64,000 bases of DNA from Candidatus Multiplicimicrobium inquinatum (lineage in GTDB: Bacteria > Omnitrophota > Omnitrophia > Omnitrophales > Aquincolibacteriaceae), in NCBI GenBank assembly GCA_002344825.1, contig DDUN01000003.1:1775-65774 (forward strand). The letters are read 5' to 3'. Below the pieces are notes generated by a model. That model had not been told where the DNA came from. It ran no database searches and saw nothing but the letters and a program-made list of their open reading frames with translations. A program made the translations under genes and the position numbers. Every line of letters begins with the position of its first letter. The stretch's first letter is position 1. Of the stretch, positions 8,337-37,429 are shown piece by piece.

Positions 8337-8352
8337 TGATACTATAGTATCA
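8337..8352. promoter_or_regulatory. Perfect 16-bp palindrome tgatactatagtatca, 8 nt upstream of the 8360 start codon
   Basis: Read directly from the sequence. It overlaps the expected RBS/-10 region of the small membrane-protein gene, so it is a candidate operator. Confidence 0.45.
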
Positions 8353-8359
8353 TTACAAT

Positions 8360-8590: not shown

Positions 8591-8600
8591 TCTGTTATTT

Positions 8601-15569: not shown

Positions 15570-16457
15570 ATGGTGAAGCCTTCTTTTTTTGTGGTGGGCA
15601 CGCAAAAAGCCGGGACCACTACTCTTCATGAGATATTGAGACAGCACCCACAAATTTTTTTACCCAAAACTAAAGAGGCGCACTTTTTTGATTTTGACGA
15701 TACATTTACAAAAGGATTTGACTGGTGGGTAGAGACATTTTTCAAGGAATGTAATTCGGGAAAAATAGCTGGTGCAATTACACCCGAATATCTTTTTTAT
15801 CCGGAAGTGCCCTTGAGGATTAAAGAGATGTTAGGGGTAGATGTGAAAATTATTATAATTCTTCGCAATCCTGTTGATCGGGCATTTTCACACTATCTAA
15901 TGACAAAAAGACGGGGGCTTGAAGCTTTAAGTTTTGATCAGGCTGTGGCAAAAGAGGCTGAAAGGTTGAAGGCGGGAAGAGACTTTGAAAGAGTGCATTA
16001 CAGCTATTTCTCTCGTGGTTTGTATGCTAAGCAAGTAAAACGCTATCTTGATTTGTTTGGTGCGAAAAATGTATTAATTTTGAAATTCGAGGAAGATTTC
16101 TTGAAAGATAAATTAGCCACAATCGAAAAAATTTTGCGATTTCTGAATGTCTCGGTTATTCAATTAGATGTTGCAAAGAAAAGTAATTCCGCGTCGCGAC
16201 CAAGAATGCCTGCGTTGAGCAGGTTTTTGTATTCAAGGAACTGGTTTAAAGAAAAAATTAAAAGAATTATTGTGTCGAAGGGGATAAGAAAAGAAATAAA
16301 GAATGTGTTAGTGTTTTTAGATCGTTTGAACCAGACAAAGACGAGATTAGAATATTTAACGTTGTATCAGAGAAAAAAGTATCTAAAATTATTCCACGAA
16401 GACATTAAGAAGTTAAGCCTGTTGACAGCGATGTCGTTTCAAGAGTGGTATGAATAG
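15570..16457 (+). CDS. Sulfotransferase (PAPS-dependent)
   Basis: 5'-PSB motif VVGTQKAGTTTL and 3'-PB motif ILRNPVDRAFSHY. Confidence 0.8.
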   Translation: MVKPSFFVVGTQKAGTTTLHEILRQHPQIFLPKTKEAHFFDFDDTFTKGFDWWVETFFKECNSGKIAGAITPEYLFYPEVPLRIKEMLGVDVKIIIILRNPVDRAFSHYLMTKRRGLEALSFDQAVAKEAERLKAGRDFERVHYSYFSRGLYAKQVKRYLDLFGAKNVLILKFEEDFLKDKLATIEKILRFLNVSVIQLDVAKKSNSASRPRMPALSRFLYSRNWFKEKIKRIIVSKGIRKEIKNVLVFLDRLNQTKTRLEYLTLYQRKKYLKLFHEDIKKLSLLTAMSFQEWYE

Positions 16458-22426: not shown

Positions 22427-23457
22427 AGGTTTCCATTATTATTCCGACTTATCAAGAGATGAAGTGGATTGAAAAATGCCTGTTGAGTCTTTTGAAAAAT
22501 AACTTGAATGTGGGTGAAGCAGAAATTCTTATTGTTGATGGCATAAGTACGGATGGAACCCGAAATATTGTAAGTCAATATATTGCTAAGTACCCCGGCC
22601 TTATCCGTATGATTGACAACTCTCGGTCATTTCAAGTCTTTGGGCTCAATGAGGCTATAAGAGAAGCAAAAGGGGAAATTATTATTCGGTGTGATGCCCA
22701 CAGTCAGTATCCCGATGGCTACGTCGAAACTCTTTTTGGGTGGCATGAAAAAAATGTTGCGGATAATATCGGAGGGTGCTGGGATACTCTTCCAGGGGCG
22801 GGCACAGCCAAAGCAAAAGGGATTGCTATTGCGATGACATCTCCGGCGGGTGTGGGTTTTTCGTATCGAACAGCGCATGGCACTAATCCGCGCTATGTAG
22901 ATACTGTGCCGTTTGGTAGCTGGAAAAGAAGCTTGTTTGATGAAGTGGGTTTTTTTGATGAGCGGTTTATTCGGGCTCAAGATTTAGAGCATAATGTTCG
23001 CATGAAAAAAATGGGCAAGAAGATAATGCTTTTGCCCTGGTTAAAAATTAAATACCACGCACGTGATAGTTGGCGAAAAATTTTTGAAATGTTTTTTCAG
23101 TATGGGTATTGGAAGAATAAAATTAACAAAAAGCATAAAATTCTTACAACATGGCGACAAATTGTCCCCCCGCTTTTTCTTTTAGGGGCGATATTTTTAC
23201 TTTTGGGAAGTATTTCATTTTTATATCTTCGTGAATTGGCGGTGATTTGTTTTTTAAGCTACTTCTTAATCTTGTTCGCGGTATCTGTTAGCTTGGTTCG
23301 TAAGCAAGCCCAGCCAGCTGAGCTGTCCTTTTATGTTGCGACTTCTTTTGTGGTGATTCATCTTGCTTATGCGCTAGGGTACTGCAAAGGTCTTTGGGAT
23401 TATTTTATTTTAAATCGAGACGATGAGCCAAATCATGTTAAAAACTTAACCAGGTGA
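22423..23457 (+). CDS. Glycosyltransferase family 2 with C-terminal TM helices
   Basis: KVSIIIPTYQE, ILIVDGISTDGT and RCDAHSQYP motifs; two or three C-terminal TM segments. Confidence 0.75.
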   Translation: MKVSIIIPTYQEMKWIEKCLLSLLKNNLNVGEAEILIVDGISTDGTRNIVSQYIAKYPGLIRMIDNSRSFQVFGLNEAIREAKGEIIIRCDAHSQYPDGYVETLFGWHEKNVADNIGGCWDTLPGAGTAKAKGIAIAMTSPAGVGFSYRTAHGTNPRYVDTVPFGSWKRSLFDEVGFFDERFIRAQDLEHNVRMKKMGKKIMLLPWLKIKYHARDSWRKIFEMFFQYGYWKNKINKKHKILTTWRQIVPPLFLLGAIFLLLGSISFLYLRELAVICFLSYFLILFAVSVSLVRKQAQPAELSFYVATSFVVIHLAYALGYCKGLWDYFILNRDDEPNHVKNLTR

Positions 23458-23783
23458 GGTTGATGTTTTAACGATGGTTGCGGATACTCCTCTGATTCAA
23501 TAATGGATGCCATGACTCGATCTGGAGCAATGCCATTTGTGATTATTGGACATTGAGATAGGAAACAGTATGCACGTGATCTTAAAAAGCAATTTTTGAT
23601 CAGTTTCGCTCCAATTGTGCCGTATATATTCATGGTCACAGCGCGGGCGGTACGAGTTCCGTTTTGATAGAGGAGATTGCATTTGAAAGAAGAATTTTTG
23701 CATATGCCGTTGCTTATAACCAAATTACTACCGAATATCGCGTAGCAGCTTGAAACTAAATTATGGCAAAAAGTATTTTTGGA

Positions 23784-23850
23784 ATGATATCGACCGTAGT
23801 TTCTTTTTTAATATAAGCTCTCGGTTTTAATGGCCAGAAGGATGGGTTGG
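23784..23850 (+). pseudogene. Remnant of a GT2 glycosyltransferase 5' end, paralogous to the start of the gene at 26761
   Basis: atgatatcgaccgtagtttcttttttaatataa is ~90% identical to atgatatcgatcgtagttcctttttttaatataa at 26761-26793 (MISIVVPFFNI…). A one-T difference in the T-run shifts the frame, so the remnant reads MISTVVSFLI followed by a stop. Confidence 0.55.
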
Positions 23851-23854
23851 GTAA

Positions 23855-25126
23855 ATGAAATTGACAACTTCTTTTCTCTTATTGTCAGTTTGGATGATGT
23901 ATGTGGGGGCCGCTCGAAAATGGTTTTTGCCGAATTTTCCTGATCAGTTGTTTGTTTCCCTTATTTTTTTTGCTGTCTTGTTGTATGTCTCAATTGGGTT
24001 TAAAATTTTTTTAAAATCTCCTTGTCCGCGTTGGTTCTACTTCTATTTTTTGGCTATCTTTTTCTGGGGAGTTATAGGAACTATTTATTCCAAGGTATCC
24101 AACCCTATGGTTTTACTTTGCGGGCTCAGCAACTACTTTTCGTTTTTTCCGCTTTGTCTTGCTGCTGCCTTCGTATTCCGCGATAATGATCAGCTCATAG
24201 AGTTTTTTAAAAAGATGGCTTATTTTACCGTGCCTGTTTTGATTTTGGGTTTTTTGCAGTACAGTAGTCCGGCAGATAGTTTGATTAATAAATATGTTGA
24301 TAGTGAAAAGTTTGTTGCCACGATGGGTGGGCAATATGCCAGGGTAACAGGCACTTTCTCGTATATTGCGGGCTATTCAATTTTTTTAACGTTTGCTTTT
24401 ACGATAACTCTCGGTGCTGTCGTAATGAGAGCTAATTTGAAGGAGGTTGTTTTATTGGGCGGCTTTTTAGTAGGAGTTTTTTTGAACGCGCTTATGACTG
24501 GGTCTAGAACGGCAGTCTGGTGGTGTATTATTAATTTGTCTTTATTTTTAGGGGTCTATTGTTTTTTGAAACTAAAATCTCTTATACCAACCTTGTTTAA
24601 GCTTAGTCTGGTGTTTGCGCTTGGATTTTATTTGCTCTCTCAAAATCCTCAAGTGAATCAAATTTATAGCGCATTTTCAAGCCGAGCGCACGCATTCAGT
24701 GAAGAAATAACAAACAGACTTGACGACAACTTTACGCCGTTTAAATTCTTAAACCAAGCGGGTCTTATTGGCTATGGAATGGGGACGACTTATCCGCCAT
24801 CTTATAGATATATTAAGAATTGGCATGACATGACTCAAGATTTTGAAGAAGAGCCTGAGAGGGTTCTGTTGGAGCTCGGGCTCGTTGGTTATCTGCTCGT
24901 GTATTCGTGGCGATTTCTGATTTTTATTTACTGCTTGTCCATTTGTTTTAAGTTAAGGAGATTTCGGGAGTTTGGGTTGGTATTAAGTCTTACTATTTAT
25001 CAGGTCTCTTTTTTGCAGATGAATCATTTGCTTTTTAATGCTACTTCTTCTTTTTTATACTGGTTTGCGATAGGGTGTGTTGTGTTGATTCGTCATAACC
25101 GTTTGAAAGCAGAATTTAATAAATGA
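23855..25126 (+). CDS. Polytopic membrane protein, oligosaccharide repeat-unit polymerase (Wzy)-like
   Basis: More than 10 TM helices and no soluble catalytic domain; located inside a glycosyltransferase block. No specific motif, so the family assignment is tentative. Confidence 0.4.
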   Translation: MKLTTSFLLLSVWMMYVGAARKWFLPNFPDQLFVSLIFFAVLLYVSIGFKIFLKSPCPRWFYFYFLAIFFWGVIGTIYSKVSNPMVLLCGLSNYFSFFPLCLAAAFVFRDNDQLIEFFKKMAYFTVPVLILGFLQYSSPADSLINKYVDSEKFVATMGGQYARVTGTFSYIAGYSIFLTFAFTITLGAVVMRANLKEVVLLGGFLVGVFLNALMTGSRTAVWWCIINLSLFLGVYCFLKLKSLIPTLFKLSLVFALGFYLLSQNPQVNQIYSAFSSRAHAFSEEITNRLDDNFTPFKFLNQAGLIGYGMGTTYPPSYRYIKNWHDMTQDFEEEPERVLLELGLVGYLLVYSWRFLIFIYCLSICFKLRRFREFGLVLSLTIYQVSFLQMNHLLFNATSSFLYWFAIGCVVLIRHNRLKAEFNK

Positions 25127-26364
25127 AAAAAAATCTAAGAGTAGCTGTTTGCCACCCTTTAAAGCAGCATTCGCATCAGTTGGCATTTGGGCTGGCAAAA
25201 AGCGGCATTTTGAGTGTCTATATTTCGGGTTCACCCGTTTTAAAAAAGCATCAACAGTGGGTGTCATTTTTTTTGGGTGGAAAATCTCTTCGCACCATTA
25301 ATGGTTTTCCCGAAGAACATGTTTGGTGGGTTCCTGCCGGGGTTATTTTTTATTTTCTTGCCGGTAAAATCAGTAACAAAACAATCAAATCATTTTTTAC
25401 TTTTGCAGGCAATTGGTTTTCAGACTTTATTTATTCCCTCGTTATTCCATGGAATGAAATTGATATGGTTGTCGGCTATGAGGAAGCGTGTAGGAGTGTT
25501 TTTTTGCGGGCAAAAAAAATGGGAAAAATTACTGTGTTAGATGCTGCAAGTTTGCACTACCAAGCGCAGGATAAATATTTTACAGGCTATGCGGAGCCTG
25601 ATTTTTTACATACGATTAAGAATAAAATAAAAAAGATGGAGCTAAGCTTAACCGATCACGTTATTACTCTAACGACGCTTGCTCAAGAAGGCTATGTTGA
25701 ATCGGGCGTGCCATTTGAAAAAACATCAGTATTGCATCTTGGTGTTGATATTGAAATATTCAAACCTAAAATGCATGCTGCTAATTTTTGGTCTGAAAAA
25801 AAGACATTTGATTTTGTTTTTTGCGGCAATTTTTTTGTGAGAAAAGGTTTGGATATTCTTATTGAAAGCTTTCGAATCGTTTCCGAAGAACATCCCGAGG
25901 CGTATTTATCGGTTATTGGTGATTGCGGGGAGCTGTCAGAAGCTCTTGCTAATGGAAAGAATATCAAAATTTTAGGGAAAAAAAGCCAAAAAGAAATAGC
26001 GGCAATTTATCAAGATACGGATTGTTTTGTGCTTCCATCGCGGCATGACTCCTGTTCAATGGCAGTTTTGGAAGCTATGGCTTGTGGATTGCCTGTGATT
26101 CTTTCAGATCAGAATGGGGCAAAGGATTTTGTTGTGGATTCAAAAAATGGCTGGGTTGTTAAAGTAGCCGATGTAGATGAACTTGCGAATAGAATGCTTT
26201 GCTGTATAAAAGACAAAGGCAAGCTGCATGAAATGAGACCGCTTTGCAGGGAGACAGCAGAGAGCCACACATGGGAAAGATATTATGCGGACGCTACTAA
26301 TTTGATTTGTAGAGTTTCAAGCTTATTAGAGGTGAGAGAAAATGATAATAAAAAAAGTGCGTGA
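25123..26364 (+). CDS. Glycosyltransferase family 4 (GT-B)
   Basis: C-terminal …CFVLPSRHDSCSMAVLEAMACGLPVILSDQNGAKDFV…. Confidence 0.8.
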   Translation: MKKNLRVAVCHPLKQHSHQLAFGLAKSGILSVYISGSPVLKKHQQWVSFFLGGKSLRTINGFPEEHVWWVPAGVIFYFLAGKISNKTIKSFFTFAGNWFSDFIYSLVIPWNEIDMVVGYEEACRSVFLRAKKMGKITVLDAASLHYQAQDKYFTGYAEPDFLHTIKNKIKKMELSLTDHVITLTTLAQEGYVESGVPFEKTSVLHLGVDIEIFKPKMHAANFWSEKKTFDFVFCGNFFVRKGLDILIESFRIVSEEHPEAYLSVIGDCGELSEALANGKNIKILGKKSQKEIAAIYQDTDCFVLPSRHDSCSMAVLEAMACGLPVILSDQNGAKDFVVDSKNGWVVKVADVDELANRMLCCIKDKGKLHEMRPLCRETAESHTWERYYADATNLICRVSSLLEVRENDNKKSA

Positions 26365-26590
26365 GTTTATTTTAAAAAAAGTGGAAGCGCAAGGCGTTCA
26401 AGATATACCAGATGACGCCAAGTTGATTGAGTTGGGAATATTGGATTCATTTCTAGTTGTTGAGTTGATGACTTACATCGAAGAACAGTTTCGCATCAAG
26501 ATTGATGTTTCAGATTTGACAGAAGAAAATGTTGCTACTTTGAGACACATAGAAAAATTTGTTTTGGAAAAAATCAAGAGCGTGGAATAG
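26342..26590 (+). CDS. Acyl carrier protein-like (phosphopantetheine attachment)
   Basis: 82 aa; LGILDSFLVVELMTYIEEQF contains the conserved Asp-Ser attachment motif in helix II context. Confidence 0.65.
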   Translation: MIIKKVREFILKKVEAQGVQDIPDDAKLIELGILDSFLVVELMTYIEEQFRIKIDVSDLTEENVATLRHIEKFVLEKIKSVE

Positions 26591-26760
26591 GGTGATTGAT
26601 TTGAGGGGGCACCGGGGCATTGGGCTAGGTTGTCTTCGGCAGAGTTTCAAAGCTAGAAATCAGAACAATGACAGATCTTTTCTGGTCGATCTGCACCAAA
26701 AGATGGTTTTTTCTGTTGGCGTCCTTAAAGGGCAAAAGAATATATCGAGGGCATTTTGAG

Positions 26761-27843
26761 ATGATATCGATCGTAGTTCCTTTTTTTAATATAAACGAAC
26801 GATTTGAATTATTAGAAGGCTGCATAGAATCTATTTTGCTTCAAACTTCTAAAGACTATGAAATTGTTCTCATTGATGATGGAAGCACTGACGGTACAAG
26901 TCAAAGAGTTAGGGGTGGGCTCTGCATTGATTTAAAAAAAAAACAAGTGCCTTTTATCTATAAAAGAATTGAGTGTAATCATGGAGTTTGTACGGCCAGA
27001 AACGCAGGTGTTGAGTTCGCGCGCGGCGAGATAGTCGCATTTTTAGATTACGATGATCTTTTGTTAAGTGAGTATGTTAAAAATATTACGGAATATTTCA
27101 AGAGGCCCAATAGTAAAGTATGGGCGGTTTGTTCCGCTTTTTACTATTCTAATTTTTATGGGTATGAAAAATTGAGTGGAGCGGTTTGTGAAGTTAATTT
27201 GGATGACTTCACGGAGACGCAGTTAATAAGTTTTTTGATCGTAAACAATTTCCCATTCCCAATGGGAAGCGGAATAGCAATCAGAAGGCAGTATATGTTG
27301 GAAAACAAGGTGTTTTTTTCTGAAAAATTGAATCGAGAAACTGCAGAAGATGTCGAGTTTGGCTTCCGCTTATTGAGTAGGAATGAAATGCCGCATTTTT
27401 TTTACAAAGAATTGATTGTTTGCCGATCTTATTATTCCTTCTTATCAAGACGTCGTGGGGATCTGATAAGGACAGATCAAATGGAGCTATGTAAATATAT
27501 GTATAAGCAGTCAGTAAGGAAGTTGGCTAAGCGAGCAGAGGCTAAGATGTCTCTTGAAGAACGGGTTCTCTTCCGAAGAAAGAGATGGGAGGCCATGAAG
27601 TACTTTCGCGTGCAGAGCTTGATTTTGAGAAGAAAATATAGTCAATGGTTTAAAATATCGCCTAATTTAAGAGTAGTAAAATTAGTGTTACGCATGTTTT
27701 TTATTTTTTTAGCGAAACATAGTTTTCTGGATGTGTTGGCGATGTGGAGTTTTTTGAAAACTAAAAACGATGACTCTGCATTGTCGCGTGTAAAAGAGCA
27801 GCTCCCAGGGATCGTTTTACGGTACAGAAAAGCTCTGCATTAA
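26761..27843 (+). CDS. Glycosyltransferase family 2
   Basis: MISIVVPFFN…IVLIDDGSTDGT…ARNAGVEFARGEIVAFLDYDD. The start is taken at the internal ATG (the longest ORF begins at 26668). Confidence 0.75.
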   Translation: MISIVVPFFNINERFELLEGCIESILLQTSKDYEIVLIDDGSTDGTSQRVRGGLCIDLKKKQVPFIYKRIECNHGVCTARNAGVEFARGEIVAFLDYDDLLLSEYVKNITEYFKRPNSKVWAVCSAFYYSNFYGYEKLSGAVCEVNLDDFTETQLISFLIVNNFPFPMGSGIAIRRQYMLENKVFFSEKLNRETAEDVEFGFRLLSRNEMPHFFYKELIVCRSYYSFLSRRRGDLIRTDQMELCKYMYKQSVRKLAKRAEAKMSLEERVLFRRKRWEAMKYFRVQSLILRRKYSQWFKISPNLRVVKLVLRMFFIFLAKHSFLDVLAMWSFLKTKNDDSALSRVKEQLPGIVLRYRKALH

Positions 27844-28160
27844 AAACACAGTCTCAAAGGGGTGTGTTTTACTCCGCATCTTTTTTAATTTAAATGGGAG
27901 GTGCTATATATAGAATTTTTTTTGATTGTGCGCATGATTTAGTTTGCGTCAGCATTACTTTTGGATTATTCCAAAGGCAGAGATTTCTTTGATGCCGAAA
28001 GTAGAGCAACACGATCCGTTCACACAGATCATGGAATGATTTGATGCCTAAAATGTTTCTGAATTAGTACGAAAAGCTCAAAAAAACCGAAACTCTCTAT
28101 TTGTCAGCATCTTGATTTAGGGTGTGAGGTTAAGGAAGTCTAGATAAACAATACAATGGT

Positions 28161-29672
28161 ATGACCAATTTTTTAACGCTACATCAATTGGTTCAACATT
28201 CAGCCAAGGCTTGTCCGTCTCAGGTTGCGATTTCCGGGCCCGATGGAGAGTATACATATCATGAAGCAGATCAATGGGCCAATCGAGTTGCCCATGCTTT
28301 GATATTGAATGGAGTCAAAAAAGGTGATCGGGTTGGTGTGCACTTGGAACGCGGAGCAAAGTCTCTTATTCTTTTTCAGGGGATATTAAGGGTGGGTGCT
28401 ATTTATGTTCCGATCGATAGTAAGACTCCGATTCATGGGGTTAGTGAAATTATTTCCAATTGTTCGCCTTATGCGATTTTCACAACACAGAGCTTGTCTC
28501 AAGCGATTGTCCAGATTTGTACAAGTGAAGTTAAATATTTTACGCCGAGTCTTGGAAGCGACGACATCTTCAGTTGGGGCAATTTAAACACACAATCGTC
28601 CGAAGATGTATCAGGATTGCCTTTAATTGATGAGCATGATCCTGCTTATATCCTCTACACGTCGGGTTCTACAGGCAAGCCAAAAGGTGTCTGTCTGAGT
28701 CATAAGAATGCTCTCTCTTTTATTTATTGGGCGGCAACACTGACTCGTGCTCACCGCCGGCATGTTTTTGCCAATCACGCATCATTTAGCTTTGGTATTT
28801 CAGTTTATGATATTTATGTTCCTTTGCTGGTTTGCGCAAAAGTAGTCATAGTACCTGAGAGCATTACTTTTTTTGGGAAGAGTATGATGAATTTTATTGC
28901 AAAAGAAAATGTCACCCACTGGTATTCTGTTCCGACAGCGGTGCTTCTTATGATGGAATGCGAAAATTTCTTTGAATCAATAAAAAATCATATTGAGACG
29001 ATGATGTTTGCGGGAGAGCCTTTTGCTAAAGCTCAAGTAAACAAGTTACGTAAAAATTTACCCGGTGTACAAATTATTAATTTTTATGGAGCTACTGAAA
29101 CAAACGTGTCGTGTTACCATGAAATTAATGATGAAATCCCGGATTCGTTACCGGCCACGCCGATCGGCAAAGCCGCATGCTTGGATGAAATTTGGATTGA
29201 TAATCAGGGCGAAGACCCAGATTTAAACACCGGAGAACTTCTTATCAAGGGACCGACTGTCATGTTGGGTTATTGGGGTGGAGAATTAATAAGGGACCGT
29301 ATATACCGGTCCAAAGATATTGTTCGAAGAGATAGCGATGGTGTTTTTCATTACATCGGCAGGACCGATAGAATCGTCAAAATTAAGGGGTATCGCGTTG
29401 CTTTATCAGAAATTGAGCAAACCATTCTTAGGCATCCAAACATCCGTGAAGCCGTTGTGTCTCTGGAAGGGGATGGTCTCAATGCGAAGCTTGTTGGGTA
29501 TGCGACTCTTAAGGATCCTAATAGTATTCCCGGTTTAATGGAGTTGAAAAAGCTGTGTGCTGATTATTTGGCTCCGTATAAAATCATTCATAAAATTAAT
29601 TTTCTTCCAAGGTTTCCGCTTAATGCCAACGGTAAGGTGGATATAGCGGCTCTTATTAATCAAGGCAAGTAG
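28161..29672 (+). CDS. AMP-dependent adenylating enzyme (DltA/amino-acid-adenylation-domain-like carrier-protein ligase)
   Basis: A3 motif YTSGSTGKPKG; A5 FYGATE; A7/A8 YRSKD…GRTDRIVKIKGYRV. About 500 aa, and an ACP gene lies 1.5 kb upstream. Confidence 0.8.
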   Translation: MTNFLTLHQLVQHSAKACPSQVAISGPDGEYTYHEADQWANRVAHALILNGVKKGDRVGVHLERGAKSLILFQGILRVGAIYVPIDSKTPIHGVSEIISNCSPYAIFTTQSLSQAIVQICTSEVKYFTPSLGSDDIFSWGNLNTQSSEDVSGLPLIDEHDPAYILYTSGSTGKPKGVCLSHKNALSFIYWAATLTRAHRRHVFANHASFSFGISVYDIYVPLLVCAKVVIVPESITFFGKSMMNFIAKENVTHWYSVPTAVLLMMECENFFESIKNHIETMMFAGEPFAKAQVNKLRKNLPGVQIINFYGATETNVSCYHEINDEIPDSLPATPIGKAACLDEIWIDNQGEDPDLNTGELLIKGPTVMLGYWGGELIRDRIYRSKDIVRRDSDGVFHYIGRTDRIVKIKGYRVALSEIEQTILRHPNIREAVVSLEGDGLNAKLVGYATLKDPNSIPGLMELKKLCADYLAPYKIIHKINFLPRFPLNANGKVDIAALINQGK

Positions 29673-29683
29673 ACAGGAATTTT

Positions 29684-31165
29684 GTGACAAAATCGTTTGA
29701 TGTTCTGATATGCGGCGCGGGAATTTCAGGTCTTTATTGCGGCCAAAGAATTCTTGAAGATGCCGCTCGCAAAGGAAGAAAAATCAGGGTCGGGATTATA
29801 GAGTCGCGCAGCAGGGTGGGCGGGCGTATTTGGACCACAAGGTTTCCTGAGTTTCCGGACACGAATTTGGAACTTGGTGCATTCCGATTTATGGAAAACC
29901 ATCATTTGGTGGCTAAGCTTGTTAAAAAATATGGCCTCAAAACAGAGCTAGTTCATTCCGAAGACCAACAGCTTTATTTTTTGCGGGGCAAAAAGTACAT
30001 TAAAAATAATGTGCGAGCCATTAACTCGGCATATCATTTGCAGCCTGCAGAGGCTGGAATGACCGCCGCGCAGCTTCTGGAATTTGCGATTAAAAAAGCA
30101 ATGCCGGGGTACCGCTGGGATAGTTTTAAGGCCCCTCATGATCAAATTCAGCTAGCCTTGAAAAAGGCGGATGCATCAAATCTTGGTTTCAAGCACTTTT
30201 TATTGCAGTTTATTTCTAATGAAGCATTTTGTTTAATCCGAGACAGCTCCGGATACGACTCCAGTTTTTTTAATTGGAATTCCCGCGAAGCGCTTGCTCA
30301 TGTTGTTAACGACTTCGTGTTATCTCCGAAGTCATTTTCACTGCATGGCGGAAGTGATCAGCTAATAAAATCATTGAAAGCTGACTTTTTAGAATTGGGA
30401 GGAGAAATTTATTTAAATACAAGTTTGCAGAATTTTAACTTAGTCCGATCCGGCTCTGAACGCGTCATTCAGTGCGGTGTGTCTGACGGAAAGTCAAAAA
30501 AAACGCAACTGGTAAAAGCCAAAGAGCTAATTCTTGCCATTCCTCAAAAACCATTATTTCAATTAATGCATCGATCTCCGGCAATCCGAAGTCCCGAAGT
30601 GGATCGTTTGCTTAGTTCAGTTTATCCGCTCAATGCGGTAAAAATTTTTCTTGGCTATGATACGTCTTGGTGGAAGAAAGTCTGTCCTCAGGTGACCATG
30701 TCGATTTCAGATAGCCCGCTTCGGAAGACCTTTTATCAGTTGCCAACAAAGAAGGATGGGAAAAACAAGGGCGGTGTTTTACTTGCGGCATATTCGGATA
30801 TGGAAAATTTTTACTTTTGGGATGGACTCATGCCGCCAGCCTCCAGTGGAAACTCGAAAGACATGGCAGAGGTTAATAGTGCCGTGACGGCCATGCTGAG
30901 CCGGATGCATGGTGCTAAAGTGCCGGTTCCGGTTGCGGGAAAAATTATAAGATGGTCTACAGAACACGCCGGCGCGGCTTTTCACGCTTGGAAGCCGGGG
31001 GTGGATTGCATAAAGGTCAGAGAGAACATCAGTAAGCCCGTTGCGGATGTTCCGGTTTATATTTGTGGTGAAGCGTATTCTTCTTATCAATGCTGGATGG
31101 AAGGCGCTTTAATTTCTGCCGATTCAATGTTGAATAAGTACTTTGATAATACTAAAAAAAGGTAA
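29684..31165 (+). CDS. FAD-dependent amine oxidase family oxidoreductase
   Basis: N-terminal dinucleotide-binding motif VLICGAGISGLYCG…GIIESRSRVGGRIWT, typical of flavin amine oxidases. Confidence 0.65.
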   Translation: MTKSFDVLICGAGISGLYCGQRILEDAARKGRKIRVGIIESRSRVGGRIWTTRFPEFPDTNLELGAFRFMENHHLVAKLVKKYGLKTELVHSEDQQLYFLRGKKYIKNNVRAINSAYHLQPAEAGMTAAQLLEFAIKKAMPGYRWDSFKAPHDQIQLALKKADASNLGFKHFLLQFISNEAFCLIRDSSGYDSSFFNWNSREALAHVVNDFVLSPKSFSLHGGSDQLIKSLKADFLELGGEIYLNTSLQNFNLVRSGSERVIQCGVSDGKSKKTQLVKAKELILAIPQKPLFQLMHRSPAIRSPEVDRLLSSVYPLNAVKIFLGYDTSWWKKVCPQVTMSISDSPLRKTFYQLPTKKDGKNKGGVLLAAYSDMENFYFWDGLMPPASSGNSKDMAEVNSAVTAMLSRMHGAKVPVPVAGKIIRWSTEHAGAAFHAWKPGVDCIKVRENISKPVADVPVYICGEAYSSYQCWMEGALISADSMLNKYFDNTKKR

Positions 31166-31193
31166 ATAAGGATTTTGTTAACTCAATCTAAAC

Positions 31194-32414
31194 ATGAAAA
31201 GCTCTATGACTGATACCGATTTTGATGTGATTATTATCGGAGGGGGAGTTATCGGTTTAAGTGCGGCATATTATTCGGCCTTTTCAGGAAAACGCACTTT
31301 GCTGTTAGAAAAGAATGATTTTTTTCATGATCTGGGCAGTTCCGGCGGGAATTCACGTTTTTTCCGAGTTATGTACTCTGATCCGAAGTTGGCGAGGTTG
31401 TCTGAAACTTCATACTCTTTATGGAAGCAAGTCGAGAAGGAGACGGGGATTTCTGTTTTGAATGAGCAGCCATTGCTTTTTTATGGTAGTAGAAATGTAA
31501 AAGATACAGTCGAAGGAGACTTTAATAATTCGGATCAAGTGATGAGGAAAATGGGAATTCCCTTTAAGTTTTTGAACTCAGCAGAGATTCAGAGACATTA
31601 TAGTGTGTTTAAAAAATTGCCCGAAGAGTTTGTAGGGCTCATTCAGGAGAACTCAGCCGTTATTCAAGCCAGAAATGCCCTGCGCGCATTTCATCATCTG
31701 GCTAAAAATGCGGGTGCCAACCTCATGACGAATTCTCCAGCTTCTATTTGTGATGTCTCAGATTCCGGAAAAATCATTACGATTAAAACCCCAACCGGTC
31801 TCTATCGTACATCATCGCTGATTTTGGCTCCCGGTGTTTGGACCAATGAAATCATTGCCCCTCTTAAAGTTCAATTCGATCTGACGATTTGGCAAATGAC
31901 AGTTGGCTACTACGGAGTTGAGAACCCAAATCTTAATTACCCTTTTTGGTATGAATTTGGAGAGTCGGCTGTGGCCGGGCAAGGGTTGTATTATGGCTTT
32001 CCGGTTGGAACCGACTATGAGGGGTGTATTAAGGCTAGCTGTGATTTTACTTTTAATCAGTATGATAAAGTGCAGAGCTGTTCACGAATGGTAGATCCCA
32101 AAGCTCTTGAGATGATTTCTACCCATTTGGTTAGAAGATTTCATGGAATTAACCCTTCACCAATGCACTCATCAACGTGCATGTACACAATGAGTAAAGA
32201 CTATCGGATGATTTTAGGGTTGTTGCCGGGGTATAAAAATATTGCAATATTGACAGGGGAGTCGGGTAGAGCATTTAAATACGCCCCGATTTTTGGACGT
32301 ATATTCAACAGCTTAGTAAGCGATGGTGACCCCATGTATGACATCGATTGTATTTCAATTAATAGACCCAATATATTCAATAGTTTTAAACAGGATGTAA
32401 AGCAATATGAGTGA
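31194..32414 (+). CDS. FAD-dependent oxidoreductase (DAO family; sarcosine/glycine/D-amino-acid oxidase-like)
   Basis: DVIIIGGGVIGLSAAYY…LLLEKN and ~400 aa length match the DAO family. Confidence 0.65.
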   Translation: MKSSMTDTDFDVIIIGGGVIGLSAAYYSAFSGKRTLLLEKNDFFHDLGSSGGNSRFFRVMYSDPKLARLSETSYSLWKQVEKETGISVLNEQPLLFYGSRNVKDTVEGDFNNSDQVMRKMGIPFKFLNSAEIQRHYSVFKKLPEEFVGLIQENSAVIQARNALRAFHHLAKNAGANLMTNSPASICDVSDSGKIITIKTPTGLYRTSSLILAPGVWTNEIIAPLKVQFDLTIWQMTVGYYGVENPNLNYPFWYEFGESAVAGQGLYYGFPVGTDYEGCIKASCDFTFNQYDKVQSCSRMVDPKALEMISTHLVRRFHGINPSPMHSSTCMYTMSKDYRMILGLLPGYKNIAILTGESGRAFKYAPIFGRIFNSLVSDGDPMYDIDCISINRPNIFNSFKQDVKQYE

Positions 32415-33585
32415 GCGATCAATAAAAAACTTCATGATTGGCGCACTTATTGTCTCTGTCCCACTCTTGATTTGCGGCGGGGCCCAAGTGAATAAGTATT
32501 TTAAATGGGAAGGAGCGCTCTCTTATTTTTTATTAGGGCAGGTTGTTTTTTTTGCGTTTATTTTAGTGTTTGAGCGGCTGGTAGGCAGAATTTCAGAAGA
32601 GCAGGCCTTGTACTATGTTATCGCTTCGATTGCTTTTTTAGGTATTGTTTTTTACTTCGTCTATCCTATTGCTAATTCAGGGGTGGTTGGAGGCGGAAGC
32701 GATAATGATGACGCGTATAATCTGGCGGCCAGAGCTCTGCTCAAGGGAGTATACCCATACCGGGAGCATACGTACCTCGGTGGAGGAATTGCATATTTTC
32801 CTGGAGCAATTTTCTTGTCATTGCCGGCTGTCATTTTAGGTAACGCGGCGCTTCAGACCTTTGTGTGGTTAATACCTTTTTGTTTTTTTCTAAAATATTT
32901 TTTAGAATCGTGGAAAGGTGTTTTATTTATTATTTCAGCGCTCATCATTTTTTGCCCCACATTTATTCAAACGGTTGTTGTCGGCTCTGATTTGATTGCA
33001 AGCGGTTGTTATATTTTCTTGTCTCTCTTTATGTTCATTGGCGCGGTGCGGCAGAATAAGCCTATGGCTGTTCGCATGGGGGCTATTGTTTTTCTTGGTA
33101 TGGCGCTTTCTTCGAGAACAAACTATTTGTTTTTTTTACCTTTGTTAGGCGGGCTTCTTTTGAGAGAGAGGGGTTTTAAAGTAACTTGCGCTTATGTTGC
33201 GGCAATAATTCTAGTTTATTGTCTGGTTACATTGCCATTCTTTTTTTACTCCCCGAAGGAATTTTCTCCATTGATCGTTCAGGCTGGAAAACTATCTGAG
33301 TTTGACTATCTTCTCCCGAATGCGTCCAAAATCATACTGACAATAATTGCTTTTTTTACGTTGATATTCACGTTTCACAAAAAAGTAAACACTAAAACGG
33401 GTTTTCTGATACTCGGTTCAATTTTGCAAGCGATACCGCTTGTTTTTATTGCTGTGTTGGCCTCGATAAAAGACGGTAGCTTGAATCTTGGGATGGCGTG
33501 GTATTTTTTTCACTTTCTATTTTTTTCGATGAGCGCTGGGTGGCTTCTGCTTTGCCAAGATGGTTCAAAGTTGAGAGAAAAGTAA
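32407..33585 (+). CDS. Polytopic membrane protein, possibly a GT-C-type (DUF2029/GT87-like) glycosyltransferase
   Basis: About 10 TM helices; an acidic loop GGGSDNDDAYNLAARALLKGVYPY after the third TM resembles GT-C catalytic loops. The function is uncertain. Confidence 0.35.
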   Translation: MSERSIKNFMIGALIVSVPLLICGGAQVNKYFKWEGALSYFLLGQVVFFAFILVFERLVGRISEEQALYYVIASIAFLGIVFYFVYPIANSGVVGGGSDNDDAYNLAARALLKGVYPYREHTYLGGGIAYFPGAIFLSLPAVILGNAALQTFVWLIPFCFFLKYFLESWKGVLFIISALIIFCPTFIQTVVVGSDLIASGCYIFLSLFMFIGAVRQNKPMAVRMGAIVFLGMALSSRTNYLFFLPLLGGLLLRERGFKVTCAYVAAIILVYCLVTLPFFFYSPKEFSPLIVQAGKLSEFDYLLPNASKIILTIIAFFTLIFTFHKKVNTKTGFLILGSILQAIPLVFIAVLASIKDGSLNLGMAWYFFHFLFFSMSAGWLLLCQDGSKLREK

Positions 33586-34007
33586 TGAGTGCAATCAATG
33601 TTAGCAATGAGAGAAGCGTTGTCAGAGTATAAATGGTCTTTAATTTGAAATAATATGACCAGTCCTTTTTTATGTCGGTTTGTTGTATTGATATTATAGA
33701 AAATGCCAGAAAAAAGATTGCGCCAAATATATGGGTAAGAGAAAGAGTGGTTCGTTAAAACTTCATGCACAAGACCAGATATGCTTAAAAATCTTATAAT
33801 CTTGGTAAGCTAGAAAGCCCCATGTTTAGTGGGGTTAGAATGATAGGGAAAAGTAAATTGCAGAGGATTGGTTTGAAGCTGAGCGACCATGGATTGATTA
33901 TTATTTGGAAACAAAAAAGCCGAGCACAGTGATTACGCAGGCATGGCATTATGGGTTTTATGCTATTGGCGTGATTTTAATGTGCTTGTGGCTTAAATAG
34001 TAAACAA

Positions 34008-34877
34008 GTGTATATGAAGATTTATATGAAAGAAATTAAAAGCAATCTAGTTAAAAATGGATTTTCAAGGTGTTGTCGTTTTTTGAGGAATCTTTGTGCG
34101 TTGCACCGGCGAAAGAATTTTAATCTTCTGGTGCTAAATTATTTAGTTGTAAAAATCACTGGAAGAGGAGCGCTGGCAAAAGAAGAAATAAAATGGAAAG
34201 AAATACTTTTTTCGTATTCGTTTCCGGCTGATGATTATCTCATTATTGAGGAAGCTTATAATGCTTGGGGAAATTTGATGTCCTTCGAATTGTTTTTTCT
34301 TCGACTGGTTCGGAATAAGCTGAATTGGGAGTTGATAGCACCGAAAAGCGATATTCGGCATGAAGTGCTCGGAAACAAGCAAGGCTTAAATATCGGCGCG
34401 CCTGTCATTTATGTTATGTGGCATCACGGCGCCTATTTCATATGCAAATTGCTTCTCAAAATAATGCCGCATGCGACGCTTCATTATAATGATAAATTGT
34501 TCCCTGCGCAAAATGTGGCAATTATCATTCAATCTATTAAGACAGGGCATTCGATTCTTCACTTTATAGACGGAAAAGATGGTAAGCGCAATGTGATGGT
34601 TCCTTTTTTAAGCAAAACGCTCTTTATTCCATCTTCAATTATTAAAATTGCTAGAATGATGAAAGTTCCAATTATGCCAATAACTGCTTATTTTTATGAG
34701 CATGACGACATGAATCAGATTTATATCGGAGATCCTTTGTTTACACAGGATGAACTTGAGGCGATGACTGATCAAGCAGCCATATTAACTATTTGGAACT
34801 ATTTTATGAAGGATTTGAAAGAAAAAGCACCGTGGTCAACTAATCCTTGGGTTATCAGTTTGTTATCAAAAAAATAA
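34008..34877 (+). CDS. Lipid A biosynthesis (LpxL/HtrB)-family or lysophospholipid-type acyltransferase
   Basis: 289 aa, similar in length and organisation to LpxL-like acyltransferases (…PVIYVMWHHGAYF…HFIDGKDGKR…). Confidence 0.45.
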   Translation: MYMKIYMKEIKSNLVKNGFSRCCRFLRNLCALHRRKNFNLLVLNYLVVKITGRGALAKEEIKWKEILFSYSFPADDYLIIEEAYNAWGNLMSFELFFLRLVRNKLNWELIAPKSDIRHEVLGNKQGLNIGAPVIYVMWHHGAYFICKLLLKIMPHATLHYNDKLFPAQNVAIIIQSIKTGHSILHFIDGKDGKRNVMVPFLSKTLFIPSSIIKIARMMKVPIMPITAYFYEHDDMNQIYIGDPLFTQDELEAMTDQAAILTIWNYFMKDLKEKAPWSTNPWVISLLSKK

Positions 34878-34879
34878 AA

Positions 34880-35740
34880 ATGAAATTTAAATATTTCATC
34901 AATTCATTGATTAAAAGGATCCAGCGTAAAGAGCTATATTGCCCATCCTGCGGATGCACGAACTCTATTTCAGTTGACCGAAAATTTTGGGTAACGACTC
35001 TGCAGCGCTGTGCAGGTTGTAGCCTTTTATTTCGTCAACCTTTTAGTACGAACATTGAAAATAAATCTTATTATCAGACTGAGTATCGAGAGGGTTTTAC
35101 AACATCAATGCCTTCGGTTCTCGAGCTTGAAAACCTTAAATCTGTTTTTTTCCAAAACACTCCCAAAGATTTTAAGTTCGTCATTAGTATTTTTAAGGCG
35201 CTTGGCTTTAAAAGCAACCAGAAAATATGTGATTTCGGGTGTTCGTGGGGCTACGGTAGTTGGCAGTTTTCGCAGGCTGGGTTCGATGTAGTGGCATTTG
35301 AAGTTTCAGAGCCGCGAGCGGCTTACGCCAAAGAAAAACTTAATGTATTGGTTACTTCCCGTGCTGTTGACATTAGAAAAGATAATGACATTTTTTTTTC
35401 GTCTCATGTGTTAGAACACTTGCCGAAATTAGAGCCTGTTCTCAATGAGGCTATTAATAGCATTGTTGTTGGCGGAGTTTTCATTGCTTTAACCCCCAAC
35501 GGATCTTTTTCAAGGAGAAAAAAAGAACCTTATTGGTGGAGTAAGGCATGGGGCTTGAAGCATCCTAATTTTCTTGATGAAATTTTTTATAAAAATAGAT
35601 TTAAGGCCTATCCCTACTTTATCGTAAGCTCTCCGTATAATCTAGATATGATAATGAACTGGGCCTCTTTCCCTAGTCAATTTATTGGGAATCTCGACGG
35701 AGAAGAGCTGTTAATAATTGTTAAAAAAGTACCATTTTAA
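34880..35740 (+). CDS. Class I SAM-dependent methyltransferase with an N-terminal Cys4 zinc ribbon
   Basis: CPSCGC…CAGC ribbon; motif I KICDFGCSWGYGS; post-I DVVAFEVS. Start taken at the ATG at 34880, directly after the upstream stop. Confidence 0.65.
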   Translation: MKFKYFINSLIKRIQRKELYCPSCGCTNSISVDRKFWVTTLQRCAGCSLLFRQPFSTNIENKSYYQTEYREGFTTSMPSVLELENLKSVFFQNTPKDFKFVISIFKALGFKSNQKICDFGCSWGYGSWQFSQAGFDVVAFEVSEPRAAYAKEKLNVLVTSRAVDIRKDNDIFFSSHVLEHLPKLEPVLNEAINSIVVGGVFIALTPNGSFSRRKKEPYWWSKAWGLKHPNFLDEIFYKNRFKAYPYFIVSSPYNLDMIMNWASFPSQFIGNLDGEELLIIVKKVPF

Positions 35741-35874
35741 AGCGGTTGTGGGGTCTAGCAGTTTGTAATGACTAAAAACACGGAGTGGTTTCAATATGGA
35801 TTCATCTCCTTTTGACCTAAATTATTGGTGAGTATCCTTTAAAGCCCTTTTGTCTATTTTTAATTTTATGAAAG

Positions 35875-36309
35875 ATGGTTCGCTAAAATTGAATTGGGAA
35901 AACTATTCAAAAGAGGCGACTATCATCAAATTTTGTTTTATAGGGCTTAAAAGTCAGGAAGTGGTGAAACTTGGTTTTGTTGCCGCAGACTTATTTTGTT
36001 CCTCTTGGTCGTTATGAGACCCGGGGGCTTGTGCTTAATAAAGCTCTCACAAATGGATTACCACGTGTTGTTTTCGATATGACAGGGTGCCGTACTAGTG
36101 ATTTGATCGAAAAAGATGAAACAGGATTCATTTTGGGGCCTGAGGATGTGGATTTATTAGTGCAGTGTTTGCTTGACGTCATGAGACTGATTTCTGACAA
36201 AAATGTGATTGAAAACCGCCCGAACAAGTCAGCGCAATACTCTATTTTTAACGCCGCAAAGGGCATTGCTTTAACCCGCCGAGGCGTAATTGATAAACAT
36301 GATTCATAA
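35875..36309 (+). pseudogene. Remnant of the C-terminal half of a GT4 glycosyltransferase
   Basis: Translation …LLPQTYFVPLGRYETRGLVLNKALTNGLPRVVFDMTGCRTSDLIEKDETGFILGPEDVDLLVQCLLDV… is a degraded GT4 C-terminal consensus (the EGFGLV-LEAMA-G-PV region). There is no N-terminal domain, and it overlaps the start of the next intact GT4 gene. Confidence 0.5.
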
Positions 36310-37429
36310 TCGACATCAAATTCATATTTGGGTGCCGGAGTTGAATCAAACGGGGGGCATTCAGGCATTTTCTAGGTTTTTGATTAAGGCGATGCGAAAG
36401 TCTTTTGACGGAGAGGTTCATGTTTTTTCAAAGAAAGATAAAACCAGTCCAGTTATTGCTGAATTACAAGGTTGCTCATGGAGTGCATTCGGAGAAACAC
36501 CCAGCACTTTTCAGACAATAATTTTTTCATTTAATATTCTTTTCGCGGCATTTTTAAGACATCCTCAGTTGATTATTGTTACGCATGCCCATTTTGCGGT
36601 AATAGCATTGATTTTAAAAAAAATACTAAAGCAAAAATATCTTGTGATTGCCCACGGTGTCGAAGTTTGGAATATAAATAACTGGCTATTAAAAAAAGCA
36701 ATCAGGAATGCTGACAAGGTGCTTGCTGTAAGTAATTTTACAAAGCAAAGGCTTATTAGTCAGAATCTTGCGTTCGATGGTGGAATAACCATTTTTCCTA
36801 ATACATTTGATGAGACTCGTTTTTGCATCGGAATGAGCGAAAAGAAAATTTTTGAAAAGTATGGGATTAGAAATCAAGATCAAATTCTTTTAACGGTTTG
36901 TAGACTTGTCCAATCGGAATTTAAAAAAGGATATGATTTGGTTTTAAGGGCCATGGTTGAATTGTCAAAACAACTTCCCGATCTTAAGTATGTGATTATT
37001 GGTGATGGAGAGGATCGTTGTCATCTCGATAGGACAATCAAGAATTTGCATTTGTCCGAACGAGTTATCTTGGCAGGGAGGGTTTCAGATGAAGAATTGC
37101 CAAAGTATTATAAGAGCGCGAATATTTTTGTTATGCCAAGCGAAAGGGAGGGATTTGGAATTGTCTATTTAGAAGCTTTAGCATGTGGCTTGCCAGTGAT
37201 AGCGGCTCGCTGTGCCGGTGCTGTAGATGCATTAATGGGAGGAGAATTAGGAGATTTGATTGAGCCCGGCGATGTGATCGGTTTGACTAGAAAAATTTAT
37301 GAAAGGCTGATGATGCCCTATTCCTTTGATATGAAAACAAAGTTAAATCAAAAAGCAAGTTACTATTTTGGTCAGAAAAAATTCAACCAGAGACTGTCCT
37401 CGATTCTAAATCAAGTGCTAAATGATTAA
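36290..37429 (+). CDS. Glycosyltransferase family 4
   Basis: …IFVMPSEREGFGIVYLEALACGLPVIAARCAGAVDAL…. Confidence 0.8.
   Translation: MINMIHNRHQIHIWVPELNQTGGIQAFSRFLIKAMRKSFDGEVHVFSKKDKTSPVIAELQGCSWSAFGETPSTFQTIIFSFNILFAAFLRHPQLIIVTHAHFAVIALILKKILKQKYLVIAHGVEVWNINNWLLKKAIRNADKVLAVSNFTKQRLISQNLAFDGGITIFPNTFDETRFCIGMSEKKIFEKYGIRNQDQILLTVCRLVQSEFKKGYDLVLRAMVELSKQLPDLKYVIIGDGEDRCHLDRTIKNLHLSERVILAGRVSDEELPKYYKSANIFVMPSEREGFGIVYLEALACGLPVIAARCAGAVDALMGGELGDLIEPGDVIGLTRKIYERLMMPYSFDMKTKLNQKASYYFGQKKFNQRLSSILNQVLND

Follow-up and report, generated by a model that had tools for sequence, protein, structure and literature searches.

Why should carrier-protein genes lie in the middle of a polysaccharide locus? 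The question is raised by a stretch of 64,000 nucleotides of contig DDUN01000003.1 (assembly GCA_002344825.1) from Candidatus Multiplicimicrobium inquinatum, a member of the Omnitrophota; this whole stretch is called the window here. The original prediction, made from the sequence alone, read eight neighboring open reading frames (ORFs) as one module in which an acyl carrier protein (ACP) delivers an activated amino or acyl group to an envelope polymer, by analogy with D-alanylation by Dlt. The carrier-protein logic holds, with an ACP, an adenylase, an acyltransferase and additional oxidative steps, and without DltB or DltD. The eight-gene module does not hold, since three of its genes lack counterparts in every other cassette locus. 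What remains is a conserved core of five genes encoding an ACP, an adenylase, an amine oxidase, a NikD-like flavoenzyme and an acyltransferase, which we refer to as P289. We give an even chance to the reading that this core is a portable heteroaroyl-carrier cassette, which would convert an amino acid to a heteroaromatic acid, load the acid onto the ACP and transfer it as an ester to a glycan.

All eight ORFs were recovered on the plus strand where the original prediction had placed them, and its domain assignments were essentially borne out by Pfam and NCBIfam profile matches, with structural evidence in addition for the acyltransferase, whose Pfam match is below the cutoff, and for the membrane protein, which has none. 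The five core genes are as follows.

26342-26590, plus strand: ACP or peptidyl carrier protein, 82 amino acids (PF00550, E = 2.4e-8), with Ser36 in "LDSF" as the phosphopantetheine site; core cassette
28161-29672, plus strand: stand-alone adenylase, 503 amino acids (AMP-binding and AMP-binding_C, E = 4e-76); core cassette
29684-31165, plus strand: flavin adenine dinucleotide (FAD)-dependent L-amino-acid alpha-oxidase, 493 amino acids, cytoplasmic (PF01593 Amino_oxidase, E = 1.5e-34); core cassette
31194-32414, plus strand: NikD-like flavoenzyme of the monomeric sarcosine oxidase (MSOX) family, 406 amino acids (DAO, E = 1.4e-38); core cassette
34008-34877, plus strand: LpxL/PatA-fold acyltransferase (P289), 289 amino acids (Lip_A_acyltrans, E = 1.7e-4); core cassette in layout A

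A five-gene core recurs in unrelated loci

Related loci were gathered from the gene contexts of adenylase homologues and with a DNA pattern for the unusual A4 motif of the adenylase, which was scanned over genome and metagenome collections. The A4 signature is very rare: the pattern matched a single genome out of about 185,000 species representatives, and three metagenome contigs besides. The gene order ACP-adenylase-amine oxidase is repeated in five other independent kinds of locus: a second Omnitrophota-like exopolysaccharide (EPS) locus (L005), a group of Bdellovibrionaceae-type contigs with no glycan genes near the cassette (L008, L009, L017 and L018), and three contigs without taxonomic placement (L007, L010 and L021). 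The NikD-like gene comes next in L005, in the Bdellovibrionaceae-type group, in L010 and, truncated, in L021; the L007 contig ends after the amine oxidase. Identities of the cassette proteins to those of the window range from 35 to 83%, and L005 is at the upper end (75% for the adenylase, 80% for the amine oxidase and 83% for the DAO-family enzyme). Using tblastn, we found P289 orthologues adjoining the cassette at 16499-17470 of L005 (E = 3e-23) and at 15289-16083 of L008, on the minus strand (E = 1e-11). L017 is organized like L008, P289 included.

The order of the ACP, adenylase and oxidase genes is thus not a chance juxtaposition, and the co-occurrence check that the original prediction had proposed finds these three genes together both with and without glycan genes. 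The glycosyltransferase family 2 (GT2) protein, the 392-residue membrane protein and the 297-residue methyltransferase of the window have no tblastn counterpart in L005, L007, L008, L010 or L012, a further contig described below. The eight genes therefore split into a portable core and three locus-specific glycan genes, and a real conserved cassette can be told apart from glycan genes that are merely adjacent to it. Methylation, which had been proposed as a step of the module, cannot be linked to the cassette.

Two kinds of variation accompany the core. In four contigs (layout B), an ORF of 208 to 228 codons without Pfam assignment lies directly upstream of the ACP gene (L007 9099-9785, L010 742-1386, L012 3828-4454 and L021 417-1055). 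Its product has an invariant GxSxG motif, Asp and His. These residues make an alpha/beta-hydrolase-type transferase or thioesterase likely, which would be an off-loading alternative to P289. A P289 gene was not seen on the layout B contigs, which are short. The second variation is a luciferase-like monooxygenase of the two-component type, an optional sixth member in L005, L008 and L017 that is absent from the window. These genes lie at 13080-14045 of L005, 14292-15278 of L008 and 4642-5628 of L017, and L012 has two of them (166-1149 and 2777-3754) together with an ACP and an adenylase of the Gly-variant type described below, with no oxidases on the contig. Ring hydroxylation by a two-component monooxygenase takes place in the formation of 3-hydroxypicolinate, and the luciferase-like enzymes suggest product variants such as a hydroxylated acid.

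The stretch upstream of the cassette in L008, L009 and L018 (positions 1-9600) contains the cell-wall turnover genes for a PBP4-type peptidase S13, SLT and NamZ, as well as genes for a TGase_elicitor-domain protein, a GCS2 ligase and a glutaredoxin. These neighbors may point to an envelope acceptor other than EPS in these bacteria.

The adenylase has lost the residue that binds an amino group

The adenylase had been described as DltA-like, which is imprecise: its best solved relative is PltF, an L-prolyl-carrier-protein ligase (6O6E, E = 2.3e-90, 307 bits over residues 6-501), compared with about 154 bits for DltA. The next-closest homologues carry the annotation L-prolyl-carrier ligase or CloN4. 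Motifs A3 (YILYTSGSTGKPKG), A8 (GRTDRIVKIKGYRV) and A10 (NGKVD) are present, and A5 and A7 are also intact.

The A4 motif sets the enzyme apart. It reads sFGiSVyD (FSFGISVYD) in the window and hFDlSVlD in PltF. The pattern F-x-F-G-I-S-V is present in eight of the 120 best homologues: the seven nearest to the window enzyme (44-100% identity), and P0108. Nearly all of the remaining 112 have F-D-[LI]-S (FDLSV[LF]D). When the ten Stachelhaus positions were mapped with a MAFFT alignment anchored on PltF, the specificity code was GIYYMAFVSK for the clade of the window, compared to DLLYLALVCK for PltF and DL[L/F]Y.A.VCK for the remaining homologues. The position of Asp235 is occupied by Gly in all eight clade members (Gly212 in the window, verified at codon 28794-28796) and by Asp in nearly all of the other 112. 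The further changes relative to PltF are L236 to I, L239 to Y, L299 to M, L322 to F and C331 to S. The Gly-variant adenylases are monophyletic, with 100 of 100 neighbor-joining bootstrap replicates.

In adenylation domains that activate amino acids, Asp235 pairs with the alpha-ammonium group of the substrate, and its loss is typical of domains that load keto, hydroxy or aryl acids. The replacement by Gly throughout the clade therefore argues that the substrate is not an alpha-amino acid, and an amino-acyl substituent, N-methylated or not, as the original prediction had considered, is unlikely. Together with the new Tyr and Phe in the pocket, the change indicates a substrate of proline-like shape without a basic amine. 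We regard the change of code, read from alignment, and the cassette architecture as solid.

The NCBIfam matches of the ACP to DltC, the OlsHI ACP and AcpP are all below their own cutoffs, and only the generic PP-binding domain was detected. The motif G..DSF is invariant across the eight cassette ACPs.

Two flavoenzymes of free-acid families

Among solved structures, the DAO-family protein is closest to NikD (2OLN, 181 bits), followed by MSOX (155 bits) and N-methyltryptophan oxidase (MTOX, 100 bits). NikD residues R53, E101, Y258, D276, C321 and K358 correspond to R58, E107, Y268, D285, C329 and K362 in the window enzyme and are kept in five orthologues; C329 is the Cys that binds FAD covalently, and R58 and K362 form the carboxylate clamp. 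Where MSOX reads K265-L-G-Y268-H269, the cassette enzymes match the D276/F277 pattern of NikD (K/R-x3-D-F), and His45 of MSOX is absent from them.

The amine oxidase groups with bacterial L-amino-acid oxidases (LAAOs) and L-lysine alpha-oxidases, and its best solved relatives are an ancestral LAAO (8JHE, 179 bits) and an ancestral L-lysine oxidase, AncLLysO (7EIH and 7EII, 150 bits). We used the functional residues of AncLLysO as a reference (PMC8405998). The carboxylate-binding Arg (R68, R76 in AncLLysO), the Lys of the O2 site (K320, K387 in AncLLysO) and the equivalent of Gln552 are all conserved. The plug loop is SGYD in the window and [S/T]-G-Y-D overall, and GYD, including the Asp, is invariant in six orthologues. 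To judge by these residues, the enzyme is a genuine alpha-oxidase of free L-amino acids whose side-chain preference is not readable from known structures.

Because both oxidases keep clamps for a free carboxylate, they probably act on free acids before adenylation and carrier loading. A role in tailoring after loading is less likely on the same ground.

A divergent acyltransferase as the predicted last enzyme

P289 belongs to a tiny family. A word-indexed homology search found only P289 itself, and an exhaustive HMMER search gave 14 matches at E <= 1e-3 in 1.84 billion representatives. P289 scores 21.4 bits against Pfam Lip_A_acyltrans (PF03279), just under the cutoff of 22.3 bits, and six of 13 family members match this domain, the best with 2.8e-48. 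His139 in "WHHG", Asp188 in "FDG" and Gly192 are invariant in the family, and Pro224 is nearly so. An AlphaFold2 model had a predicted local distance difference test (pLDDT) score of 78, and above 90 over the catalytic half, with PatA and LpxM, both of which act on glycolipids, as the closest folds. According to this model, P289 is an acyltransferase of the PatA/LpxM fold, of the lysophospholipid acyltransferase (LPLAT) type, and the LpxL-type assignment made earlier is borne out by fold.

The donors of LpxL and LpxM are acyl-ACPs, and the target of PatA is a sugar hydroxyl on a glycolipid. The most economical prediction is therefore transfer from the cassette ACP to a lipid-linked sugar, which by analogy P289 is predicted to carry out at the cytoplasmic face of the membrane.

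A proposed route from an amino acid to an esterified glycan

The analysis shows the gene content, the conservation of the cassette, the change of code, the NikD-type residues and the folds; how the steps are ordered, which acid is made and what accepts it are inferred. The FAD oxidase would strip the alpha-amino group from a basic amino acid (L-lysine in the likeliest case, otherwise L-ornithine), and the resulting omega-amino-2-oxo acid would cyclize spontaneously to piperideine-2-carboxylate or pyrroline-2-carboxylate. The NikD-like covalent flavoenzyme would then aromatize the cyclic imine to picolinate, by a four-electron oxidation of piperideine-2-carboxylate, or to pyrrole-2-carboxylate, and loci with a luciferase-like monooxygenase could make a hydroxylated product. 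The adenylase, with its Asp-to-Gly change and Tyr/Phe pocket, would adenylate this non-basic acid and load it onto Ser36 of the ACP. In the last step P289 would esterify a hydroxyl of a lipid-linked sugar, here presumably the EPS repeat unit, with the acyl group carried by the ACP.

Enzymes of the MSOX/NikD type depend on a carboxylated substrate, either a secondary amine or a cyclic imine. Lysine and ornithine are the simplest precursors because their alpha-oxidation products cyclize to such an imine. Picolinate and pyrrole-2-carboxylate are proline-like in outline and have no basic amine, which fits the altered PltF-type pocket. Alpha-deamination of lysine followed by a NikD/CrmD-type enzyme yields picolinate in the nikkomycin and caerulomycin pathways (PMC11446937). 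A heteroaromatic 2-carboxylate has a slightly lower than even chance of being the acid.

A wider claim would be that Omnitrophota and Bdellovibrionaceae decorate an envelope glycan or glycolipid with a picolinoyl or pyrrole-2-carbonyl ester, made by a free-acid route of LAAO and NikD-like enzyme and activated by a new class of PltF-derived adenylase, all encoded on a mobile unit with two interchangeable off-loaders. This claim is tentative and rather less likely than not. In the literature on pyrrole-2-carboxylate on polysaccharides, on NikD homologues with adenylases and on Omnitrophota secondary metabolism, we found no description of the cassette. If the proposal is correct, a heteroaromatic ester would be a class of bacterial glycan substituent not reported so far, and carrier-dependent tailoring of surface polymers would reach beyond D-alanine and fatty acids to small aromatic heterocycles. 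GIYYMAFVSK would be a new adenylation code, which predictors for nonribosomal peptide synthetases (NRPS) would probably call proline-like, and NikD-type chemistry would exist outside actinomycete antibiotic clusters, paired with a flavin L-amino-acid oxidase. Metal-chelating groups of the picolinate type could alter surface metal binding, charge and recognition in these poorly known, possibly host-dependent bacteria.

Comparison with known systems

The cassette would work like a hybrid of the NikC/NikD picolinate branch, PltF/PltL-type loading by a type II NRPS and LpxL/PatA-type transfer. With the nikkomycin and caerulomycin pathways (NikC/CrmC and NikD/CrmD) it shares alpha-deamination, a covalent flavoenzyme of the NikD type and ATP-dependent activation of the acid. 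Unlike these pathways, it deaminates with a flavin L-amino-acid oxidase rather than a pyridoxal phosphate-dependent aminotransferase (the lysine 2-aminotransferase NikC/CrmC), has Arg at the position of NikD Trp355, loads a free-standing ACP with a PltF-derived adenylation domain and lies in a polysaccharide or envelope context rather than an antibiotic cluster; its acid is a predicted one.

A stand-alone adenylase, a stand-alone carrier and flavin oxidation are also found in PltF/PltL/PltE and in CloN4/CloN5/CloN3, where CloN2 and CloN7 carry out the transfer to sugar. The cassette adenylase is a true full-length homologue of PltF that departs from the proline code, Asp235 included. Whereas the PltE/CloN3/RedW modules use an oxidase of the acyl-CoA dehydrogenase type, the cassette has none, and its oxidases come from the free-acid families of LAAO and NikD. 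Its transferase likewise differs, being of the PatA/LpxM fold or, in layout B, the small alpha/beta-hydrolase-like protein.

The resemblance to Dlt is limited to an adenylase and a small carrier protein that supply an acyl group to an envelope polymer. The adenylase scores 242.9 bits against the DltA equivalog (TIGR01734, cutoff 559.85) and the ACP 37.8 bits against that of DltC (NF003464, cutoff 68). A domain scan detected no MBOAT or DltD domain in any ORF of the region from 13 to 46 kb. Unlike in Dlt, transfer is predicted to be cytoplasmic, via an LPLAT-type enzyme, with a substrate that is probably not an alpha-amino acid. The analogy is thus weak, given the PltF-derived adenylase and its lost Asp. 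Compared to LpxL, LpxM and PatA, P289 has the invariant His139 and Asp188 at the catalytic positions and is otherwise a very divergent, rare branch that lacks the acidic residue of HX4(D/E); as donor it is predicted to use a small heteroaroyl-ACP, and not a fatty acyl-ACP or acyl-CoA.

Evidence against the proposed route, and other explanations

Several observations weigh against a route from lysine or ornithine to a heteroaroyl ester on EPS. Trp355 of NikD, which stacks over flavin and substrate and is important for aromatizing, is invariably Arg in the cassette enzymes (R359 in the window); this change could reflect a different or more polar substrate. Glu383, which binds lysine in AncLLysO, is Leu316 in the window oxidase and Gln in the other orthologues. 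Recognition of lysine in the manner of AncLLysO, by Glu383 and a GGYY plug loop, is thus not found in the amine oxidase, and we rejected reading lysine as the precursor from these residues. The closest solved relative is moreover a broad-specificity LAAO, HTAncLAAO2. Lysine or ornithine is therefore proposed from the logic of the pathway and not from residues.

On the side of transfer, the window P289 reads "HHGAYF", with no acidic residue at +5 for HX4(D/E), and its Pfam score falls short of the cutoff. The ACP gene is parted from the adenylase gene by the GT2 gene and a 317-bp gap, the acyltransferase gene sits behind a 422-bp gap that contains a decayed paralogue, and co-transcription across the cassette is unproven. 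Oxygen-dependent flavin oxidases would be odd if the Omnitrophota lineage is strictly anaerobic. The acceptor is uncertain, because the cassette is found away from glycan loci in Bdellovibrionaceae and other contigs, and acylation of a glycan is thus no intrinsic property of it.

This last point leads to a rival that accepts the same chemistry and places the product elsewhere: P289 may acylate a membrane lipid or glycolipid, for instance lipid A, core or a phospholipid, or the acyl-ACP may feed a small molecule, with the EPS location incidental, for example through insertion into a variable region. Six cassette loci without any glycan genes (L008, L009, L017, L018, L010 and L021), the glycolipid-acting enzymes that P289 most resembles, and signs of rearrangement around the window copy (the inserted GT2 gene, the decayed paralogue and a truncated ORF of glycosyltransferase family 4, GT4) are all consistent with this. 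Against it, the window and L005 hold the cassette in homologous EPS loci despite differing neighbors, all genes of the window copy are on the plus strand, and the junctions are tight, including an 8-bp overlap into the gene of the membrane protein. We consider this explanation unlikely, and it is the most probable of the alternatives. Two others keep the carrier and change the acid, and both are improbable, to about the same degree. One follows PltF and PltE: L-proline or pipecolate would be loaded onto the ACP, and the two flavoenzymes, in place of PltE, CloN3 or RedW, would oxidize the tethered ring to a pyrrolyl-2-carboxyl-S-ACP. PltF is the closest solved relative of the adenylase and prolyl ligases or CloN4 come next, the two 2-electron oxidations equal the number of oxidases, and in clorobiocin the pyrrolyl-2-carboxyl group passes from a carrier protein to a sugar hydroxyl as an ester, a precedent for such transfer. 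This route is opposed by the clade-wide loss of an amine-binding Asp that is kept in more than 100 proline-type ligases, with four other pocket residues differing, by two oxidases whose families use free amino or imino acids and in which the Arg or Arg/Lys that bind the carboxylate are retained, and by the lack of a gene of the acyl-CoA dehydrogenase type in the window cassette or related loci.

In the other of these two, the amine oxidase would turn a hydrophobic or aromatic amino acid into a linear 2-oxo acid, the adenylase would activate this acid, and the substituent would be a 2-oxoacyl group or, after reduction, a 2-hydroxyacyl group; the NikD-like enzyme would have an unrelated role such as oxidation of an N-alkyl amino acid. 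The loss of Asp235, as in domains for keto, hydroxy or aryl acids, the preference for hydrophobic and aromatic amino acids that is reported for HTAncLAAO2 (PMC10517122), and the hydrophobic Leu at the Glu383 position would all fit. The strictly co-inherited NikD-like enzyme, which needs a secondary amine or cyclic imine, would then be left without a substrate even though its NikD-specific residues are conserved, and the cassette has no ketoreductase. Far less probable still is a Dlt-like aminoacylation system, or a fatty-acyl-AMP ligase (FAAL) that works with the ACP in lipid A-type acylation next to housekeeping oxidases, an outcome that the original prediction had itself allowed for. In its favor are the weak NCBIfam matches to DltC (the ACP) and DltA (the adenylase) and the presence of an LpxL-like acyltransferase. 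We rejected the Dlt-like system on the equivalog scores, which are far below the cutoffs, the missing Asp for binding an amino acid, and the absence of DltD and of MBOAT/DltB, the latter because the sole polytopic membrane protein has a GT-C fold. The fatty-acyl version was rejected as well: the adenylase is an amino-acid-type (NRPS-type) adenylation domain and not an FAAL, and the oxidases are not housekeeping enzymes, because genomes of other lineages also have them in company with the adenylase and ACP.

Neighboring genes and genomic setting

The remaining features of the stretch are the following.

26668-27843, plus strand: GT2 glycosyltransferase, 391 amino acids (PF00535, E = 2.5e-26), with one C-terminal hydrophobic segment; not part of the cassette
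32407-33585, plus strand: GT-C-fold membrane glycosyltransferase, 392 amino acids, about 10 transmembrane segments, no Pfam match; locus-specific
33845-33970, plus strand: decayed fragment of a second P289-type acyltransferase gene, found by tblastn with the L005 orthologue, with in-frame stops
34847-35740, plus strand: class I S-adenosylmethionine-dependent methyltransferase, 297 amino acids (Methyltransf_23, E = 2.7e-7, 30.9 bits with a cutoff of 27); locus-specific

To all appearance, the variable part of the surrounding EPS locus has contributed three ordinary glycan enzymes here: the GT2 protein, the GT-C protein and the methyltransferase. Of the two identities weighed earlier for the 392-residue membrane protein, GT-C and MBOAT/DltB, the first holds and the second does not: it has the membrane fold and the acidic motif in an early loop that characterize the GT-C class, with "GSDxD" at residues 97-101 invariant. 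Its homologues adjoin GT4 and DegT genes elsewhere, without the cassette. The GT2 protein is no more similar to ArnC than to other GT2 families in NCBIfam, and we do not claim that it and the GT-C protein form a pair of polyprenyl-phosphate-sugar synthase and transferase. At its N terminus the methyltransferase has a zinc-ribbon-like four-Cys motif, CPSC...CAGC. Its true start is likely the ATG at 34880, and that of the acyltransferase the ATG at 34026 (283 amino acids) rather than the GTG at 34008.

The region is identical to contigs of a Candidatus Omnitrophota metagenome-assembled genome (GCA_035436425.1) and to sludge and bioreactor metagenome contigs. The cassette lies midway in a large plus-strand EPS locus at about 13.1-53.9 kb. 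This locus is of the Wzx/Wzy type and encodes an ABC exporter, a hexapeptide acyltransferase, a sulfotransferase, a UDP-GlcNAc 2-epimerase, several GT2 and GT4 proteins, an AsnB-like amidotransferase, a GFO/IDH/MocA oxidoreductase, a carbamoyltransferase, an epimerase, Wza, a Wzc-like ATPase, an initiating transferase (Bac_transf) and two Wzy_C-type proteins. The latter are separate membrane proteins resembling O-antigen polymerases or ligases (20520-21701 and 23855-25126). The modification genes, for the sulfotransferase (15570-16457), the AsnB-like amidotransferase (38651-40525) and the carbamoyltransferase (41630-43381), make it probable that the EPS is rich in modifications (sulfation, carbamoylation and amidation). 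Three large ORFs have no Pfam match at E <= 1e-5 (8601-9983, 460 amino acids; 45675-47897, 740 amino acids; 48550-50511, 653 amino acids). The Wza export gene, at the distal end of the locus, lies between two of them, and these ORFs may be unrecognized export or assembly components.

Within the cassette, 11 bp separate the adenylase and amine oxidase genes and 28 bp the amine oxidase and NikD-like genes, and the NikD-like gene overlaps that of the GT-C protein by 8 bp. The wider gaps are 317 bp before the adenylase (27844-28160) and 422 bp before the acyltransferase (33586-34007). Only in the window do the GT2 gene and the 317-bp spacer come between ACP and adenylase (1.57 kb from the end of one gene to the start of the other, in agreement with the earlier estimate of about 1.6 kb); elsewhere the ACP gene abuts or overlaps the adenylase gene. 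A promoter scan was at chance level, with 37 promoter-like sites compared to 37.1 expected, and is uninformative on operon boundaries or on the 27844-28160 gap; the same scan found 18 terminator-like sites compared to 13.4 expected. Two weak features of chance-level significance lie in the 317-bp spacer, a hairpin resembling a terminator (27859-27875) and a site resembling a promoter (27889-27916). An Rfam scan of positions 23000-37000 at E <= 1 detected no riboswitch or other RNA that could reveal a ligand.

The decayed fragment in the 422-bp gap reads PSTVITQAWHYGFYAIG, matches the region of the WHHG motif of the P289 family, is interrupted by stops and is out of frame with the intact gene that directly follows it. 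In tblastn with the L005 orthologue it has 31% identity over 42 amino acids (E = 0.002 when searched against the window, 1e-5 against the gap by itself). The fragment points to a past rearrangement and suggests an old tandem duplication or a recombination scar. Beyond the methyltransferase gene, a 112-codon ORF (35971-36309) matches only the C-terminal part of GT4 proteins (Glycos_transf_1), shares 20 nt with the beginning of the full-length GT4 gene that follows, and is probably the remnant of a truncated glycosyltransferase.

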